A stretch of 64,000 bases of DNA from a virus. Its lineage: Duplodnaviria; Caudoviricetes. The notes below the pieces were generated by a model, which saw nothing but the letters and a program-made list of their open reading frames with translations, did no database searches and was not told where the DNA came from. Shown in pieces: positions 709-27,791 of this stretch. A program made the translations under genes and the position numbers. The number at the start of each line of letters is the position of its first letter. Position 1 is the first letter of the stretch. The stretch spans positions 171,654 through 235,653 of the IMG/VR virus record IMGVR_UViG_3300021431_004524; one strand, given 5' to 3'.

Positions 709-1530
709 ATGTTTAAAAAGTTATTCAAATTTGGTGGAGAAAGCGACTTTGGTACTGTACAGAATATCATAATAAGTGTCGTTGGATTCATCATTATCAT
801 TTTAGGTTGGCATTTCATATCAGTAAATGAAATTATACCGACTAACATTCTTCCTGACCCATTTAAGGTGGCCGGAAGTTATGGGACACTGATAAGTGAG
901 TATCATATGTTCGGTAATGCATGGTTCAGCCTTAAAATGAATTTACTTTGTTATGTATATGCTATCGGTTTGTCATTGCCAATAGGTTTTATTATCACTT
1001 TATGCCCATTACTTAATTTGTTAATCAGTAAATACATAACGAGTATTAGATTTCTTCCATTTGTGGCAATAAGTTCGATATTCGTTTCAATTTTCGGCCT
1101 TACATTTAACATGAAGGTATGGTTTTTGACCGCTGCATTGATGGTGTATATCATTCCTGCAATTGTCAATAAGATTAATGATTTGCAGAATCCTAAGAAT
1201 GATAAGGATAATGTATATCTTCAGACAATTCAGACAATGGGTGCGTCCAATTGGGAAAAGTTCAGATATGTATATTGGCCGTATGTAACGAGTGGTGTTG
1301 CTGATACATGCCGTGATTTGCTTGCTGTCAGTTGGACATATGTAACTGTAGCAGAGTTGATTTATAAGGATGGAGAGATTACAGGTCTTGGTGCATCAAT
1401 TAATACCATGATTAGGCAGTCGCACATACCAGAGGCATATGCTCTTATTGTACTGATTATTGCAATTGGCTTTGCGCAGGATTTTGTTTTTGCTAAATTA
1501 ATTAAGAAGTTGTTTCCATATAAAAATTAA
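709..1530 (+). CDS. ABC transporter permease (NitT/TauT, SsuC-like)
   Basis: Several TM helices, ILPDP motif, EAA-like loop TIQTMGASNWEKFRYVYWP, VTVAELI. Confidence 0.85.
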   Translation: MFKKLFKFGGESDFGTVQNIIISVVGFIIIILGWHFISVNEIIPTNILPDPFKVAGSYGTLISEYHMFGNAWFSLKMNLLCYVYAIGLSLPIGFIITLCPLLNLLISKYITSIRFLPFVAISSIFVSIFGLTFNMKVWFLTAALMVYIIPAIVNKINDLQNPKNDKDNVYLQTIQTMGASNWEKFRYVYWPYVTSGVADTCRDLLAVSWTYVTVAELIYKDGEITGLGASINTMIRQSHIPEAYALIVLIIAIGFAQDFVFAKLIKKLFPYKN

Positions 1531-1535
1531 TTGAA

Positions 1536-2540
1536 ATGGGTAATTTATTTTCAAATATATTGAAGGAAGATGTTGCTGGAAAGACAGTAAACGAAACTAC
1601 GGATAAAGGTCCTGGTGAAACCGTTGCATGTTCACCATCTGAGATTGTTTCTGTGTTAAAAGACCATGTTGCACCTGATATTACGACCAAGGAGGTGGAA
1701 ATGGTTAGAGAGCAATGTAAGGAAAGTGCAATTGTTCCTACTAAGAAACATGACGGTGAATATGAAGCGGAAAACACTCCTAATGTTATTGACTTTGAAA
1801 ATGTAACAGTAAAATTTGGTGATTTTACATTGTTTGATAAATTGAATTTCTCAATACCCGATTTTAAGGGTGAAGGGCAGTTTATCGCAATTATGGGTAG
1901 TAGTGGAAGCGGTAAAAGCCAAATGGCACGTCTGATTTCTGGACTTAAAAGGCCAAATGAGGGCGTTGTTAAGATGTATGGTAAGCCTTATGATGAGAAA
2001 ACACATGTTCCGATGGTATTCCAACAGTATTCTTCATTTCCTTGGATGACAGTTCTTGAAAATGTCGCTTTGCCATTGAAAATGAAAGGAGTTGGCAAAG
2101 AGGAACGTGAAGCAAAGGCTATGGAAATCCTTAAACTTGTCGGACTTGAAGGACATGAGCAGAAATGGGCGCAATATCCGGCATTATCTGGCGGACAGTT
2201 GCAGCGAGTCTCTTTGGCTCGTAATCTTGCAGGTGATTCTCAGATTATGATACTTGATGAATACAGTTCCGGTCTTGATACAGCATCAAAGGCATCAATG
2301 CAGGACATCTTGCTTAAATTGTTCTATGATGATAGTGTTGACCGTACATTTATCATGATTACGCATGATATTAATGAGGCAATATATCTGTCACAGAGAG
2401 TTTATCTGCTTGATGCTAAGACACACACATTCGGTGATGTCGTGGATGTTAAGTTTGATGGAAAACGTGATAGGAATATCATTAATACACCAAAGTATCA
2501 GGAATACTACAATAGAATTGAAAGATTCTTTAACAAGTAA
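1536..2540 (+). CDS. ABC transporter ATPase (TauB/SsuB-like) with N-terminal extension
   Basis: Walker A GSSGSGKS, MVFQQYSSFPW, LSGGQ, ILDE, ITHD. Confidence 0.9.
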   Translation: MGNLFSNILKEDVAGKTVNETTDKGPGETVACSPSEIVSVLKDHVAPDITTKEVEMVREQCKESAIVPTKKHDGEYEAENTPNVIDFENVTVKFGDFTLFDKLNFSIPDFKGEGQFIAIMGSSGSGKSQMARLISGLKRPNEGVVKMYGKPYDEKTHVPMVFQQYSSFPWMTVLENVALPLKMKGVGKEEREAKAMEILKLVGLEGHEQKWAQYPALSGGQLQRVSLARNLAGDSQIMILDEYSSGLDTASKASMQDILLKLFYDDSVDRTFIMITHDINEAIYLSQRVYLLDAKTHTFGDVVDVKFDGKRDRNIINTPKYQEYYNRIERFFNK

Positions 2541-15764: not shown

Positions 15765-17040
15765 TTATGCCGATTGTGGTGCATATATCACAGCACGGAC
15801 ATTATAGTAAGATTTTTTATATAGAGTAGAGGTTATTTGTGCGGTACTACCAGACCATTGTCCGCCATAGCATTTAGTGGCATCTGTTTCGCGCCCCCCC
15901 TAAAACCGGATAAAAATATTTAGTGGTATTAACACCCCATTTATTATGTAGTGAAACAAGTGCTAAATGAGGACCGTCATAACTGGTATCATATCTATTG
16001 CAAATAATCCTTGCCATACTACCTGTTGGCAGACACCAGTCACCTTGATTTGTCCCTGTTGTATGATATCTCCAACAGCACTGTGCCGCCGGATGTATGT
16101 ATTGACTATTAGTTGTGTTAGTTATTTTACTTGCTGTTTTCCATGCCGTACTATTTGAATTATCTACTGCAAGTATTTTTGCTGATAATTGTTCCGGTGT
16201 ATCACTGCCTGTCATTCCACCAATAGTATAGCCATCGCCACCGTAACATGGAGAGTTACTTGAAGAATTGCCGGCATTACCGGTATCTGGCGTATAATAA
16301 GACATCGTATTTAATGAATAATAATAGTCGCCACTACATTTAATTCCAATCGGTATTACACCAGATGGTATTTCTGTCATACTATATACTTTTTTATCTG
16401 AACATAGAATATTATTATACCATCCAGAATCTGCAGGATATTGACCAATATACACATAAGCACTTTTATTAAGTGTCTTATGTGTTGCCCGTACAGAAAC
16501 ACTTCTGTATGAACCACTATAAAAATCTTCTGTGGCTTTTATGTATTGATAACGACCTGACTGGTTTGAAAAAGTAAGCCATGTTATGTTTTTGCCAAAC
16601 GTCCAATTATAATCAGATGCCGTTCCATAACTAACGCTCACATATTTGGCATTCTCGTTTGGATTAACAAATGCCGCCAAAGATACAGCACCATAATTAT
16701 TTACGTCGTGCAAAGTAAGTTTTACACTACCTTCATTTTGCGTAAGTTCTAATTCTACGGTTTCACCTTGATATGTAATTGTAACAGTGCCACTCCTACT
16801 ATTGGCAATATCAGTATTTTCTTGATAGGATATTGAAATATATCCGTTACTTTTATAATATGATGCGGATGATATCCATGTTTCGCTTTTTGATACGGTA
16901 ACGCCGTCATCTTTTAATAATTCTCCACCATAATATATATTCACAGTAAAACCACCGCTTGTACCGGATACCGTTTTTTGATTATATTCCAACGTTAAAC
17001 CGTTTTTAGTTTCATTTATTAACAATTCTCTTCTTCTCAT
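15765..17040 (-). pseudogene. MRRR-family BACON + C-type-lectin-like protein, frameshifted at a G7 tract (annotated ORF stops at 15874; full length would end at 15765)
   Basis: BACON-like repeats (SRSGTVTITY) and HPAAQCC...GDWCLPT. Removing one G at 15894-15900 gives RETDATKCY...YYNVRAVIYAPQSA*. Confidence 0.7.
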
Positions 17041-17141: not shown

Positions 17142-18593
17142 ATGAGAAGAAGAAATTTGTTATTTAGTGCCGGCAGTGTGTCACCGGATGGTATAACTTA
17201 TGAATACGTTGACATGGGATTGTCCGTTAAATGGGCAACATTTGATGTCGGGGCAACAAAAGTCGGTGAATACGGAAAATACTTCCAATGGGGCGATATT
17301 CAAGGTTATGCTTCCTCAGAAGTAGGCTCAGGAGACGGTAAAAAGTACTTTGAATGGAATGATTACAAATATTGTAATGGTAGTTATGACACCTTAACTA
17401 AGTACAATAATAATTCATCATATGGTACTGTGGATAATAAAACCGTACTTGAATCAAGTGACGATGCGGCAACATTCAACATGGGTAAGGGATGGAGGAT
17501 GCCTACAGAAGCAGAATACACTGAACTTATCAATGCATGTAATCAAACTTGGGACAGTACAAATAAATGGCGTATATTCACGCTGAAAACTGATAGTACC
17601 AAGAAAGTTGTTTTTCCTGCTTCCGGCCTCGGCATCAGTGGTGGCCTCGGCGGCCGAGGTTATAGCGGCTATTTTTGGTCTTCGTCCCTTAGCACGTCGG
17701 ACCCGGTCAACGGGCACTACCTCAGCGTGGACAGGAGCAATGGTGTCGTGTACAACAGCTACCGTTTCTACGGCTTCTGCGTCCGGGGCGTATATAGAGA
17801 ACCAGGTAATCCAATGCCGCCAATGAGTGTGTTATTTGTAAACAAAAACGATACGACACAGAAACAAATATTTGAAAAAAATAATTGGCCGTCAGCTTCC
17901 GATTGGACACCAATCGGTATCGTAGTTGTTCCTGCTTCACATAACCGCTATGGAGATAAAACGAATGGTATTATGTCACTTGGTTGTCTAAATACTGATG
18001 GTACGATGCAGACAACAGGAACGACAAATAATGTGACAATGCAGTGGGGTGGAATTGGAACAGACACTTCTCTGAGTAATTATACTACTTGTGATGGAAG
18101 TAATGAAAGAGGTTATCTTCAGTTCCAAGCCAATAGCAGTTCTACTGCCTTGTCATACGCTGACACACCTAATATAACATATCCATACACCGACCTAACT
18201 GCTACTGAGCACAACGTTATAAGCGTTGGCTCTTTAAGTGATTATGACGGTGTTGGAAACACCAATATACTGAATGCTTCAGCATCAACGTACATTGCAG
18301 CAGCGGCTTGCAAGAAATTCAAGACAAGTGGCACAAGTGCTGGCGATTGGTATCTTCCAGCTGCTGGTGAGTTGGCATATCTTCCAAGCATAAGGTATCA
18401 AGTGAATGACACGATAAGTGCATTGAATACTAAGTATGGTAATGTTGGTGTTCAGTTGGATACATATCAATACTATTGGTCGAGTTCAGAGTACAGTAGC
18501 GGCTACGCTTGGCTCGTGGCTATGGACAATGGTAACGTGGACGGCTACGCTAAGAACAGCTACTTCTATGTTAGGGCGTTCTTGAGGTTTTAG
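17142..18593 (+). CDS. MRRR-family protein with two tandem CLec-like domains; DGR target-like
   Basis: Domain 1: YVDMGLSVKWA, WRMPT, YFWSSS...GFCVRGV. Domain 2: GDWYLPAAGEL, YYWSSSE...VRAF. Confidence 0.8.
   Translation: MRRRNLLFSAGSVSPDGITYEYVDMGLSVKWATFDVGATKVGEYGKYFQWGDIQGYASSEVGSGDGKKYFEWNDYKYCNGSYDTLTKYNNNSSYGTVDNKTVLESSDDAATFNMGKGWRMPTEAEYTELINACNQTWDSTNKWRIFTLKTDSTKKVVFPASGLGISGGLGGRGYSGYFWSSSLSTSDPVNGHYLSVDRSNGVVYNSYRFYGFCVRGVYREPGNPMPPMSVLFVNKNDTTQKQIFEKNNWPSASDWTPIGIVVVPASHNRYGDKTNGIMSLGCLNTDGTMQTTGTTNNVTMQWGGIGTDTSLSNYTTCDGSNERGYLQFQANSSSTALSYADTPNITYPYTDLTATEHNVISVGSLSDYDGVGNTNILNASASTYIAAAACKKFKTSGTSAGDWYLPAAGELAYLPSIRYQVNDTISALNTKYGNVGVQLDTYQYYWSSSEYSSGYAWLVAMDNGNVDGYAKNSYFYVRAFLRF
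17618..17793 (+). other. DGR-like variable region 1 (internal)
   Basis: Abrupt GC-rich island of NNC codons, as expected from an AAC-rich template, ending in CGG GGC GT. Confidence 0.65.
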
Positions 18594-18598
18594 CCTCC
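18471..18598 (+). other. DGR-like variable region 2 (C-terminal) with IMH-like end and a small hairpin
   Basis: NNC codon run (tac, agc, ggc, gac, aac), then GTTAGGGCGTTC and a GAGG-TTTTAG-CCTC hairpin. Confidence 0.7.
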
Positions 18599-18691
18599 TC
18601 GCTTTTGGAATATTAGTATTGAATTCTTCAATTTTATAAACAAAATTATACATTAAGTGTATTATAAGACAAGAAATATTATTTATAATAA

Positions 18692-18739
18692 ATCCCCATT
18701 AGACGAAATTGTTTGTTTTAATGGGGATTATATTTTTTT
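18692..18739 (+). terminator. Intrinsic terminator
   Basis: AATCCCCATTA...TAATGGGGATT followed by a T run. Confidence 0.7.
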
Positions 18740-19054: not shown

Positions 19055-19447
19055 ATGGAACAAAAAGATAAACAACTATTACTCAAAGACCTTTGTGCAA
19101 GGTTGCCTTATGGAGTAAAGGTATTTATACAAGATACTACTGGAAAACATTCAACAATAACAGAAAGGATTTTTGATACCTATGTTCTTCAATTTTTAAG
19201 TAATAACAATATCCTTATAAAACCATATCTCCGTCCAATGTCAAGTATGACTGAGGAAGAGTACAGTGAATTAAAAAAGATTAGTAGCTATTATGGATTT
19301 GCACCCTTTGAGTACATACATGATTGGGCTCCAAATTATGAGATGACAGATTGGCTCAATGCTCATCACTTTGACTATAGAGGACTCATAGGGAAAGGTC
19401 TTGCACTTGAAGCACCAGAGGGGATGTATAACTTAGAAAAGAAATAA
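19055..19447 (+). CDS. Hypothetical, family A (LLLKDLxARLPY...PMSSMTEEE...DWLNAHHFDYRGLI)
   Basis: Paralogs at 59509 and 60200. Confidence 0.8.
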   Translation: MEQKDKQLLLKDLCARLPYGVKVFIQDTTGKHSTITERIFDTYVLQFLSNNNILIKPYLRPMSSMTEEEYSELKKISSYYGFAPFEYIHDWAPNYEMTDWLNAHHFDYRGLIGKGLALEAPEGMYNLEKK

Positions 19448-19449
19448 CT

Positions 19450-19836
19450 ATGGCAGCAATTAAAGAAGATTATGTTTCTTTTGAGATAGCAAAATTACTG
19501 AAAGAAAAAGGATTCAAAGGTGAAGGAGAACATTTTTATGAAAATAATGAAATTGTAAGTTTTATTAATTATTGGGATAGAATTACTCCTAAACAAAGAT
19601 ATGAAGCTATAGAAGCTCCAACTCTTCAAATGGCAATGAAGTGGTTGAGAGAAAAACATCTACTACATATTCCTATAGATATGGTTAATGGGGGCAGATG
19701 GAAATATGAAATAGATGATATAAGTGTTCCTGTTGATGGTGGGGTTCTTCCTAAATATTATTGTGATAAAACTTTCAGTAGCTATGAAGAAGCTGTTGAT
19801 GACGCAATAAAGTATTGTCTTGAAAATTTAATTTAA
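19450..19836 (+). CDS. Hypothetical, family B (EDYVSFExAKLLKEKGF...QMAMKWLRE)
   Basis: Paralog at 58311. Confidence 0.8.
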   Translation: MAAIKEDYVSFEIAKLLKEKGFKGEGEHFYENNEIVSFINYWDRITPKQRYEAIEAPTLQMAMKWLREKHLLHIPIDMVNGGRWKYEIDDISVPVDGGVLPKYYCDKTFSSYEEAVDDAIKYCLENLI

Positions 19837-19842
19837 ATAACT

Positions 19843-20232
19843 ATGGCAATAATTAAAAGTTATACAGACCTTCCTCAGTCAAAGGTTCTTGCTAAGATAC
19901 TTCCGCTTGAAAGTGCGGATATGCATTATGCTACTTGGACTATTTTAGATGGTGAATTTATAGTATCTCCAAATCAAGGAAGTACAATAAAAAGTATGCA
20001 AGAAGATTACGGTAATCAAATTATTCCTTGCTGGTCACTTACGGCATTGCTTAGTGTTTTGCCTAAAATTGATGCAGAAGAGCCGATGGTAAGAAAACTA
20101 TATTATGCAAATGAACCAAAAGAAAGATATATCTGTCAATACAGTTTAACTAATATGACAAGTGAATATGGCAATCCTGTGGATGCTTGCGTGGCTATGA
20201 TTATTAAACTTCATGAACGTGAAATCTTATAA
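19843..20232 (+). CDS. Hypothetical, family C (IKSYTDLxQSKVL...PCWSL...VDACV)
   Basis: Paralogs at 20903 and 57961. Confidence 0.8.
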   Translation: MAIIKSYTDLPQSKVLAKILPLESADMHYATWTILDGEFIVSPNQGSTIKSMQEDYGNQIIPCWSLTALLSVLPKIDAEEPMVRKLYYANEPKERYICQYSLTNMTSEYGNPVDACVAMIIKLHEREIL

Positions 20233-20313
20233 TTATGAATGGATTAATAATATTTGGAGAAATGAGAAAAACAAGACCAGGAAAATGACCTAACCTTGTT
20301 TGTTTTGTTAATA

Positions 20314-20547
20314 TCACAATAACGTTAAAATTCCAAATCTTGACGCATAGCCGATAACTACTCCAAGGACAGTCAATGACCAATCAATCCAATCCCATTG
20401 TCCACCCCATAGTTTGTCTTTAAATTCAAGTGCTGATGCTACGCCAATTCCGGCATATGCCGCACAGTAAACGGTATTAGCACCGGCACCTATGAGAATT
20501 CCTCCAACGAGGTGTTTCCATCTGTTTGATTCAAATAACCACGACAT
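20314..20547 (-). CDS. Small membrane protein (start revised to MSWLF)
   Basis: Hydrophobic; preceded by the CTGATATTTATAG motif. Confidence 0.7.
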   Translation of the reverse strand: MSWLFESNRWKHLVGGILIGAGANTVYCAAYAGIGVASALEFKDKLWGGQWDWIDWSLTVLGVVIGYASRFGILTLL

Positions 20548-20645
20548 TATTATTTTAATATATTGTTTACTATAAATATCAGATAAATTAAAAAAAGAGC
20601 AATCAGCAATGGCTGCATTACCGATTGTTAATTTTCTATAAAAAA

Positions 20646-20677
20646 TTTGGTTATTTAAATTATTTTCCGTATATTTG
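20646..20677 (+). promoter_or_regulatory. Bacteroidota promoter
   Basis: TTTG-N20-TATATTTG. Confidence 0.75.
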
Positions 20678-20696
20678 CAAAAAAATAACAATAATT

Positions 20697-20900
20697 ATGG
20701 CAACGGAGACATTAGGAGCATATCTTAGAAATCTATTGACTCCATATAAGTCTTTACTTAATTTAGTAGAGGAGGTCAATAAAGGTAATATTAGTCCCTA
20801 TTTTTTAAAGAAATATAAGTTTGATAACATTAAAGAACTCATAGAGTTTTCCTACTCAGACAAAATGGAGAATACTTTATGGAGAACAGAGAATGAATAA
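20697..20900 (+). CDS. Hypothetical (start revised to MATET)
   Basis: First ATG downstream of the promoter. Confidence 0.65.
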   Translation: MATETLGAYLRNLLTPYKSLLNLVEEVNKGNISPYFLKKYKFDNIKELIEFSYSDKMENTLWRTENE

Positions 20901-20902
20901 CT

Positions 20903-21298
20903 ATGGCAACAATTAAAAGTTATACTGACTTAGAACAAAGTCAAGTTCTTTCTAAGATACTTCCGCTTGAAAGTGCGGATATGTATTATTGGTGTGCCAA
21001 CCATTATCCCAAAGAAGATTGGATTATAGAAGTGGGTACACCTGATGATAATTATGAATGCATTTGTGCTTGGAGCCTTGCAGCGTTGCTTGGTATTTTG
21101 CCATTTCATCTTATTATCAATAACCAAAGATATGCATTTAGTATGCATAAAGGCTTAAATAGAGATGGAGAAACATATATGATTAGATATAATATCTTTA
21201 ACACTGATATATGTTTATACAAAACAGAGCATTATAACAGTCCAGTTGATGCTTGCGTGGATATAATTGAAAAATTAAATGAACTTAAAATGTTATGA
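20903..21298 (+). CDS. Hypothetical, family C
   Basis: Paralog of 19843. Confidence 0.8.
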   Translation: MATIKSYTDLEQSQVLSKILPLESADMYYWCANHYPKEDWIIEVGTPDDNYECICAWSLAALLGILPFHLIINNQRYAFSMHKGLNRDGETYMIRYNIFNTDICLYKTEHYNSPVDACVDIIEKLNELKML

Positions 21299-26915: not shown

Positions 26916-27791
26916 TTAATTAGTTTTTAACGCTTTTCTTAGTTTATCCGTAACGTCAGGCAGATTATATTTCTCATATGTACCGTCAGGTTTAAGCCAT
27001 ATAAGCCTACGTGCAATCACTTTTAAACCTATATCTTCCATTGGTATCTGATATGCTGATAATTGGCAAATATAGTGATTATATGCTTCATCTATCATAT
27101 TATTGAATGGAGGTAACATACGTTGTTCGTTCTCACGTGCATAACTATTTGTTAATGAAGCATTTGTCTTATAGTCTACTATGATGAAACCACTTTTTTT
27201 ATCATCAGTGGGGTGTTTAAAATAGATTAATTTATCGAATGTCCCACTATAGCCAAGTTCTTCATTATATACTCTTGCTTCTTCCAATACTGGGTATATA
27301 CTGTCTATTGCGAACAAATCTTCATGAAATTTCAGTGCTGCTTCTTGTTTAGGACAAGCGGGGAAGAGATAGCCACACTCATATTGCATTTTAAAACGGT
27401 CATTAATCTCTTCTGGGTGTCCTTGGCAAAGATGACCAAGCATTTCGGCGTACTCATGGTGAATTGAACCACTTGTCGTAGCAAGATGATTGGTATATAG
27501 CCACTCTTCTTTAAGTTCTTCGGCAGGTATACCTAATTTAAGTGCTTTAAGTTCTGCTTTTTCATCCCAATCGACATAAGGCACGAATTTCTGTTCTATG
27601 ATGGTAGTAACAGATGTGAGTTCTTTTTTAGTTCCATCTGGTTTGGGCAAAAAATATTTATGACCATCTTCAATAAACTCGATGTCCTTAAAACTTTCTA
27701 TAATCTTATTTCTACCCTCTGTAACCTCAATTGGTTCCGGATTACGTTTGATACGTTCTAAGATATTATCAATTTTTAAAATACTTCTCAT
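26916..27791 (-). CDS. PD-(D/E)xK RecB/Cas4-like exonuclease
   Basis: SVTTII, GSIHH, SGTFD, IVDYKT, QLSAY. Confidence 0.8.
   Translation of the reverse strand: MRSILKIDNILERIKRNPEPIEVTEGRNKIIESFKDIEFIEDGHKYFLPKPDGTKKELTSVTTIIEQKFVPYVDWDEKAELKALKLGIPAEELKEEWLYTNHLATTSGSIHHEYAEMLGHLCQGHPEEINDRFKMQYECGYLFPACPKQEAALKFHEDLFAIDSIYPVLEEARVYNEELGYSGTFDKLIYFKHPTDDKKSGFIIVDYKTNASLTNSYARENEQRMLPPFNNMIDEAYNHYICQLSAYQIPMEDIGLKVIARRLIWLKPDGTYEKYNLPDVTDKLRKALKTN

Follow-up and report, generated by a model that had tools for sequence, protein, structure and literature searches.

The 64,000-nucleotide stretch analyzed here (hereafter the window) is the last 64 kb, positions 171,654 to 235,653, of the IMG/VR record IMGVR_UViG_3300021431_004524 (Caudoviricetes), a 235,653-bp 'provirus' sequence rated 60% complete. 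At 17142–18593 (+), it carries a 483-amino-acid open reading frame (ORF), whose product is labelled P0001 below and which contains two islands resembling the variable regions (VRs) of diversity-generating retroelements (DGRs). In DGRs, mutagenic retrohoming copies an adenine-rich template repeat (TR) into cDNA, the adenines are randomized, and the cDNA replaces the VR. An earlier note on this DNA, made from the letters alone, had described the two islands, VR1 and VR2, as rich in NNC codons and as each closing a C-type-lectin (CLec)-like domain; GC content, third-position C, predicted folds, and variability among orthologs all bear this description out. VR1 is indeed internal and strongly GC-rich, with its limits refined from 17618–17793 to 17628–17791.

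By profile, the N-terminal (N) module is FISUMP-like without being a certified member of that family: NCBIfam TIGR02145 (FISUMP/Fib_succ_major) matches residues 43–217 with E = 2e-7 and 31.8 bits, under the curated cut-off of 41.65. Its AlphaFold2 (AF2) model (pLDDT 82.6) was matched by VIA-align to the C-terminal domain of Lcl (Z 7.4) and to the DGR variable proteins TaqVP (Z 7.1), TvpA (Z 6.4), and Mtd (Z 6.3); the further matches are many C-type lectin domains, in a homogeneous list with middling Z scores. The domain has 23,706 representative homologs, often in tandem. In the C-terminal (C) module, Pfam Lcl_C/DUF1566 (PF07603) matches residues 381–479 (E = 6e-16) at 59.2 bits, above the gathering score of 34.9, and the module also matches phrog_4245 (E = 2e-15). 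Foldseek, applied to the AF2 model of this module (pLDDT 88), gave the Bacteroides fimbrial protein 4EPS as the best structural match (E = 1.9e-5), in addition to the Lcl C-terminal domain 8Q4E (E = 7.7e-4, rmsd 2.7 over 99 columns). Both modules are thus predicted to adopt lectin folds, each closed by a VR; VR1 forms the last ~50 residues and VR2 the last ~35 residues of the respective C-type-lectin-like domain.

The islands stand out in composition. GC content reaches 0.56–0.59 at 17600–17800 and 0.49–0.52 at 18450–18600, compared with approximately 0.35–0.40 around them. In 20-codon windows, third-position C amounts to 0.40–0.65 across VR1 (residues 151–220) and 0.50 in VR2 (residues 451–480), while mostly 0.0–0.3 is found elsewhere; within the islands, GC3 rises to as much as 0.9 and A falls to 0.10–0.23. 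The differences among the closest homologs, P0002, P0003, P0004, and P0005, all of which share the two-module layout, are gathered in the same two islands. P0001 and P0002 are 85% identical overall, with 46% identity in VR1, 55% in VR2, and 92% in the rest; for P0003 (78% overall), the corresponding values are 33%, 58%, and 85%. At the DNA level, VR1 was aligned in four copies (the window and the contigs L005, L006, and L007) and scored over 17628–17788. Within this span, 46 variable sites lie at codon positions 1–2 and four at position 3 (4/53 third positions), compared with 51 and 57 outside VR1 (Fisher p = 2e-8); at 39 of the 46 variable VR1 sites, A is found in at least one copy. The test of VR2 was made at the protein level only. 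Most residues in the variable columns (95/99 in VR1 and 46/48 in VR2) are reachable from AAC codons. Furthermore, both VRs close with an invariant, GC-rich 3' end (17778–17791 in VR1, reading ...TGCGTCCGGGGCGT up to 17791, and 18570–18593 in VR2); these ends are candidate initiation-of-mutagenic-homing (IMH) or IMH* sites, between which only a TR could discriminate. Both islands are hypervariable, as the earlier note had anticipated for relatives of this gene, and the codon-position footprint is that of DGR adenine mutagenesis.

Table 1. Features of the two-VR gene and its 3' flank (window coordinates).
Feature	Position	Strand	Basis
Whole gene: leader, FISUMP-like lectin module with VR1, linker, and pilin-tip-like module with Lcl_C and VR2	17142..18593	+	ORF, profiles, fused orthologs
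N-terminal leader MRRRNLLF	17142..17165	+	common to lectin-type and leucine-rich-repeat (LRR) phage proteins
N module, residues 20–218, predicted FISUMP-like C-type-lectin fold	17199..17795	+	AF2 model and VIA-align
VR1: variable codons 163–210 and invariant GC-rich 3' end (putatively IMH-like)	17628..17791	+	DNA variability, ortholog identity
Fusion junction and linker YREPGNPMPPMSV	17796..17834	+	comparison with stand-alone N and C genes
C module, residues 232–483: predicted pilin-tip-adhesin-like body ending in Lcl_C/DUF1566 lectin domain	17835..18593	+	AF2, Foldseek, phrog
VR2: variable codons 444–476 (18471–18569) and invariant 3' end YVRAFLRF-stop (18570–18593)	18471..18593	+	ortholog identity, third-position C
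Weak 5-bp stem GAGGT/GCCTC over the stop codon; doubtful DGR hairpin	18584..18597	+	z = -1.27; 23/200 shuffles equal
Intrinsic terminator hairpin followed by T run; closes the transcription unit	18691..18729	+	-13.9 kcal/mol, z = -3.96, 0/200 shuffles equal

Variable islands of this kind might also arise without any retroelement, through positive selection or cassette-type gene conversion acting on the ligand-binding loops of the two lectin domains, and diversifying selection frequently acts on such loops in phage receptor-binding proteins. However, point selection explains neither the fixed third-position C, the depletion of A, and the GC island in an AT-rich phage, nor the occurrence of multiple bases per site confined to codon positions 1–2; ordinary selection would hardly yield a pattern such as that of the VRs. 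A library of silent cassettes was considered as well and rejected, as no silent copy of either VR is present in the 235,653-bp record even when the invariant positions alone are scored. Moreover, the frame of VR2 is templated in other phages by AAC-rich TRs beside reverse transcriptases (RTs), as described below. We therefore regard an origin without a retroelement as highly improbable and DGR authorship of both VRs as very likely.

The gene is a fusion, joined right after VR1, as comparison with its unfused relatives reveals. The N module makes up an entire gene (220–234 amino acids) in L005, L006, and L007, with a terminal VR1 and a stop 3–4 codons past ...GFCVRGV. DNA homology between the window and these stand-alone genes ends at 17791, directly past the invariant end of VR1, and in L006 the stand-alone gene is followed in synteny by homologs of the genes downstream in the window. 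The C module likewise exists as stand-alone proteins (P0007-9, P0054, and P0059), in which an MRRRxLL leader is followed at once by a PGxPMPP linker. These stand-alone forms of both modules establish what had previously been offered as one option, namely the fusion of two captured targets. The fused form occurs in at least nine further homologs (P0002-5, P0011, P0017, P0038, P0045, and P0049), down to 45% identity. Within the groups P0002/3, P0004/5, and P0038/45/49, both VRs differ. P0011 and P0017, on the other hand, have a static VR1, with 91% identity compared with 79% in the rest, and a variable VR2 (62%); the VRs have therefore diversified independently of each other. The internal position of VR1 is a consequence of the fusion. 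Its description as unusual holds for annotated DGR targets and was otherwise overstated, since the fusion accounts for it and proteins with 2–20 tandem domains of the N-module type are very common (thousands, P0121–P0268 among them, some longer than 2,000 amino acids).

The two VRs appear to require different templates. VR1 (~160 nt) and VR2 (~100–120 nt) can be aligned only over a 28-nt stretch of weak similarity (71% identity), and agreement between their invariant positions does not exceed 55%. A single TR cannot serve two VRs so unlike in both sequence and length, and on these grounds we infer two templates with confidence, in agreement with the earlier note. Two DGRs, as that note suggested, and a single RT with two TRs account for this equally well.

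For VR2, the frame has been seen at work elsewhere. In a looser pattern search, the frame WYWSSTE..AWxVxMxxGxVxxxxK..RVRAV was found to serve as a VR in seven IMG/VR phage loci. An AAC-rich template matching the VR2-type frame is present in L012, L014/L018, and L016, and an RT in the records of L010/L019, L012, L014/L018, L015/L017, and L016; L014 displays the canonical order of target, Avd-like gene, TR, and RT. The conserved Met and Lys of the frame are encoded as ATG and AAG in the templates of those phages, and the frame, including these two residues, is validated as a DGR frame. The TRs of these small phages were also considered as donors of VR2 and rejected on account of 25–29 non-A mismatches in 108 nt and a different 3' end. 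In L017 and L018, the called RT ORF has the TR, read in frame, as its N-terminus (MNNGNVNNNKNNTNRVRAV...). A precomputed RVT_1 match is missing for most RTs of this lineage, and a Pfam-only screen consequently under-calls them.

We consider it likely that this locus of a giant gut or rumen phage holds a fused gene for a binding protein with two DGR targets, both VRs of which have been written by mutagenic retrohoming from two templates. The product would be a phage protein that binds through two independent lectin-type sites, its gene having arisen when two DGR target genes of the CLec2 or 'category d' class were fused in frame. The first partner would be a FISUMP-type module ending in VR1 and the second a type-V-pilin-tip-like module ending in a DUF1566/Lcl_C VR2, with the join at the 3' boundary of VR1 replacing the MRRRxLL leader of the second gene. 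Both VRs would be written by DGR mutagenic retrohoming from two unrelated TRs, served by one RT or two. An identical protein is also encoded on a 391,794-bp contig, and ~156 kb of a ~392-kb phage therefore lie outside the sequence searched; the last bases of the record itself coincide with a gene's start codon, as in a trimmed record. The RT and TRs may reside in those remaining ~156 kb or on another element acting in trans.

Several results weigh against this explanation. The earlier note had found no RT, Avd, or TR in the 64-kb window, and that negative now extends to the whole 235,653-bp record. The record contains no RVT_1 match. Since the RVT_1 model has low sensitivity for this RT lineage, reaching E = 1e-4 to 1e-7 in genuine cassettes, further probes were used: tblastn with three DGR RTs gave no match, and a profile built from 113 DGR RTs reached a best E of 0.36, compared with 1e-214 in control loci. 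Neither Avd nor, by an A-tolerant scan, a TR was found in the same record. A TR-like copy differing only at A positions, proposed in the earlier note as a thing to look for, was sought more widely by means of VR patterns with N at the variable sites, which would match templates too, and was not found. IMG/VR contained no TR1- or TR2-like sequence, the GTDB genomes contained no VR1/TR1- or VR2/TR2-like sequence, and the JGI/ENA metagenome contigs, scanned with the VR1 pattern, returned three copies of VR1 (L005–L007) and no TR; all three are weak negatives, as records close to this genome may be lacking from the scanned collections. A search with the VR2 peptide for an RT ORF reading through its TR, as in L017/L018, returned only the query itself. 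With no TR found anywhere searched, the A-to-N specificity of the mutagenesis is putative, as is its current activity. A few variable residues (W, Q, M, and E) are unreachable from AAC codons. Shuffle-tested folding revealed no significant hairpin after either VR: none follows VR1, and of the features previously ascribed to VR2 (18471–18593), the terminal position and the invariant end, a candidate IMH, stand, while the hairpin, a 5-bp stem with z = -1.3, is doubtful. Finally, old alleles, or their spread by recombination, could account for the differences among relatives instead of ongoing homing.

Relatives of the phage were found neither in IMG/VR, by protein or by alignment, nor among GenBank phages, by blastn or tblastn. 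Two kin phages recognized through another gene (L008 and L009, 35–36% identity) contain neither an RT nor the target. P0002 and P0003 are recorded on contigs of 301,019 bp and 84,483 bp, respectively; among the best 120 matches, no RT homolog had one of these or the 391,794-bp contig as its longest contig.

These negatives fit a lineage that possesses no DGR of its own, in which a co-infecting phage, a prophage, or a host element equipped with the RT and the matching TR(s) rewrites the VRs or supplies alleles by recombination. RT, Avd, and TR are all absent from 235 kb, the VR1 pattern returned three VR1 contigs and no TR although a TR would have fitted it, and DGR parts have been shown to function in trans experimentally (PMC5758913). 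On the other side, ~40% of the genome lies outside the sequence searched, the GTDB genomes hold nothing like VR1/TR1 or VR2/TR2, and the VR2-like frame of the small phages comes with TRs that cannot be donors, given their 25–29/108 non-A differences and other 3' end. Such orphan targets are a possibility to be taken seriously, at somewhat less than an even chance. That a ~390-kb jumbo-phage lineage has both tips rewritten in trans by the RT/template sets of other elements, such as small DGR phages and prophages, appears unlikely.

The absence of a DGR core and of a significant hairpin after either VR could also mean that an ancestral DGR wrote both VRs and was then lost, with mutation having ceased and the present alleles being inherited and reshuffled by recombination. 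The frozen VR1 of the P0011/P0017 clade and the identical protein on two contigs are consistent with such fossil VRs, and Treponema isolates are known to retain targets after loss of the RT (PMC4891356). Nevertheless, in both VRs about half of the positions already differ between orthologs whose remaining sequence is 92% identical. In addition, third positions in the VRs and the IMH-like end are preserved, and VR1 has accumulated hardly any synonymous changes (4/53 third positions), which argues for recent rewriting from a conserved template. We consider the fossil explanation improbable and retain retrohoming from two templates as the preferred one.

Each ingredient of this arrangement has already been published, and two unrelated VRs in one gene constitute a variant. 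In the classification of Wu et al. 2018 (PMC5758913), DUF1566/Fib_succ_major C-termini are assigned to DGR target category 'd'. In this category, also termed CLec2, VRs overlap DUF1566 and DUF823 as well as Fib_succ_major domains, as exemplified by Legionella LdtA (PMC5758913). Similarly, the VRs described here are NNC-rich, close domains of the DUF1566/Lcl_C or Fib_succ_major type, and carry the frame YWSSx...VR(A/G)(V/F); unlike in category 'd', two domains with unrelated VRs share one ORF, and no RT, Avd, or TR is adjacent. The DUF1566 cassettes of 38–61 kb IMG/VR phages (L014/L018) share with VR2 the frame AWxVxMxxGxVxxxxK...VRA, including its M and K, whereas their targets have a single VR, measure ~270 amino acids, and lie 0.7 kb from the TR-RT, with TRs that mismatch VR2. 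Among Bacteroides DGR variable proteins, 4EPS-like proteins are the largest class, and most of them are prophage-encoded (bioRxiv 10.1101/2024.11.15.621889). The C module, with 4EPS as its best match, resembles the 'domain group 1' of these proteins (type V pilin tip-adhesin-like, 4EPS/4QB7), which has a C-terminal CLec VR. Members of that group possess one C-terminal VR and a cognate cassette, while the window protein adds an N-terminal lectin module with a second VR.

More than one VR per reading frame, internal VRs included, has also been described. For example, Marichromatium purpuratum MarpuDRAFT_1558 carries three VRs in three tandem FGE-sulfatase paralogs (PMC3521204), and surveys list 31 DGRs in which a single ORF contains several VRs (PMC6642488) and seven genes with 2–3 VRs (PMC11661182). 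The VRs of MarpuDRAFT_1558 are situated in tandem paralogous domains and belong to one DGR locus; those of the present gene are unrelated, reside in different domain types, and point to two templates. A DGR with two TRs is known from Stenotrophomonas SKA14 (PMC6642488), remote or orphan targets from Treponema denticola (PMC4891356), and non-adjacent targets more broadly (PMC5758913). The gene resembles these systems in having its RT far away or absent and in calling for more than one TR. Phage-associated targets lie nearly all within 50 kb of the RT (PMC5758913). In contrast, any RT in the same phage would be separated from this gene by 45 kb or more on the downstream side or 189 kb or more on the upstream side, a distance at or beyond the ~50 kb of that survey. 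We found no description in the literature of one ORF with two unrelated VRs on two lectin-domain types, each varying alone.

The gene sits in a tail or adhesin neighbourhood. It is flanked on one side by an AT-rich divergent promoter region and on the other by a strong terminator hairpin (18691–18729), and its neighbours include a tail-tip-domain protein, a 2,425-amino-acid Big_2/MBG protein, and a protein with a weak 'tail protein' match. Because the gene adjoins tail genes, the virion probably displays the two-site binding protein. Two adjacent ABC-transporter genes at 709–2540 (+), one permease-like (BPD_transp_1) and one for an ABC ATPase, lie immediately upstream of the tail/adhesin genes.

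In the record, three ORFs begin with MRRRxLL, all of them lectin-like (17142 (+) and 17040 (-) in the window and 155634 (-) of the record). In related contigs, the leader is also found at the start of LRR proteins and of N and C modules that stand alone. In the form MRRR(N/E/I)L(L/I), it was located at 17142–17165, 17017–17040 (-), record 155634 (-), L005 2265.. (+), and L006 3360.. (+), on proteins of FISUMP, DUF1566, BACON, and leucine-rich-repeat types that are otherwise unrelated. The shared leader may be a common docking or export tag. The divergent neighbour at 15874–17040 (-), with an MRRRELL leader and a BACON-like domain, ends prematurely; shifting the frame by one base at a G7 tract of its coding strand (C7 on the + strand, 15894–15900) would extend it into ...CYGGQWSGSTAQITSTLYKKSYYNVRAVIYAPQSA with a DUF1566-like end. 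The gene may thus be a pseudogene or subject to a homopolymer phase switch, or its sequence may contain an error. The third such protein (MRRRNLL, FISUMP-like end) is encoded at 154588–155634 (-) of the record (L004 8589–9635), 16 kb before the window. It was considered as a remote DGR target and set aside, as third-position C rises only mildly (0.3–0.4) and the tail contains AAA, GAA, and GAG codons; it resembles a static paralog or a fossil more than an active VR.

Repeated sequences were noted elsewhere in the window. Small paralogous genes at 19055–21298 (+) and 57963–60683 (-) form inverted copies ~38–41 kb apart with 73–90% identity; they comprise phrog_10841-like and MA(A/T)IK(S/E)Y... 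families, and their homologs follow the stand-alone VR1 gene in L006. A ~20-nt motif, GCAAAGATACTACAAAAA, recurs near gene starts at 27790, 32686, 35203, 41146, 51510, and 53184 (repeat family D6). Its reverse complement contains TAnnTTTG, resembling the Bacteroidota-type -7 promoter box, which suggests a Bacteroidota host.

The fusion provides a case in which a DGR variable region goes on varying once it has become internal, which bears on the minimal requirements of a target site. If the complete genome proved to be without RT and templates, this would suggest DGR writing across replicons. If trans-writing is true, the 'writer' and 'written' genomes would be different replicons, with two unrelated templates converging on one ORF. 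If both tips diversify independently, one phage protein would search two ligand spaces at once, with a combinatorially larger repertoire than any single-VR target, and could offer a natural model for bispecific binders.

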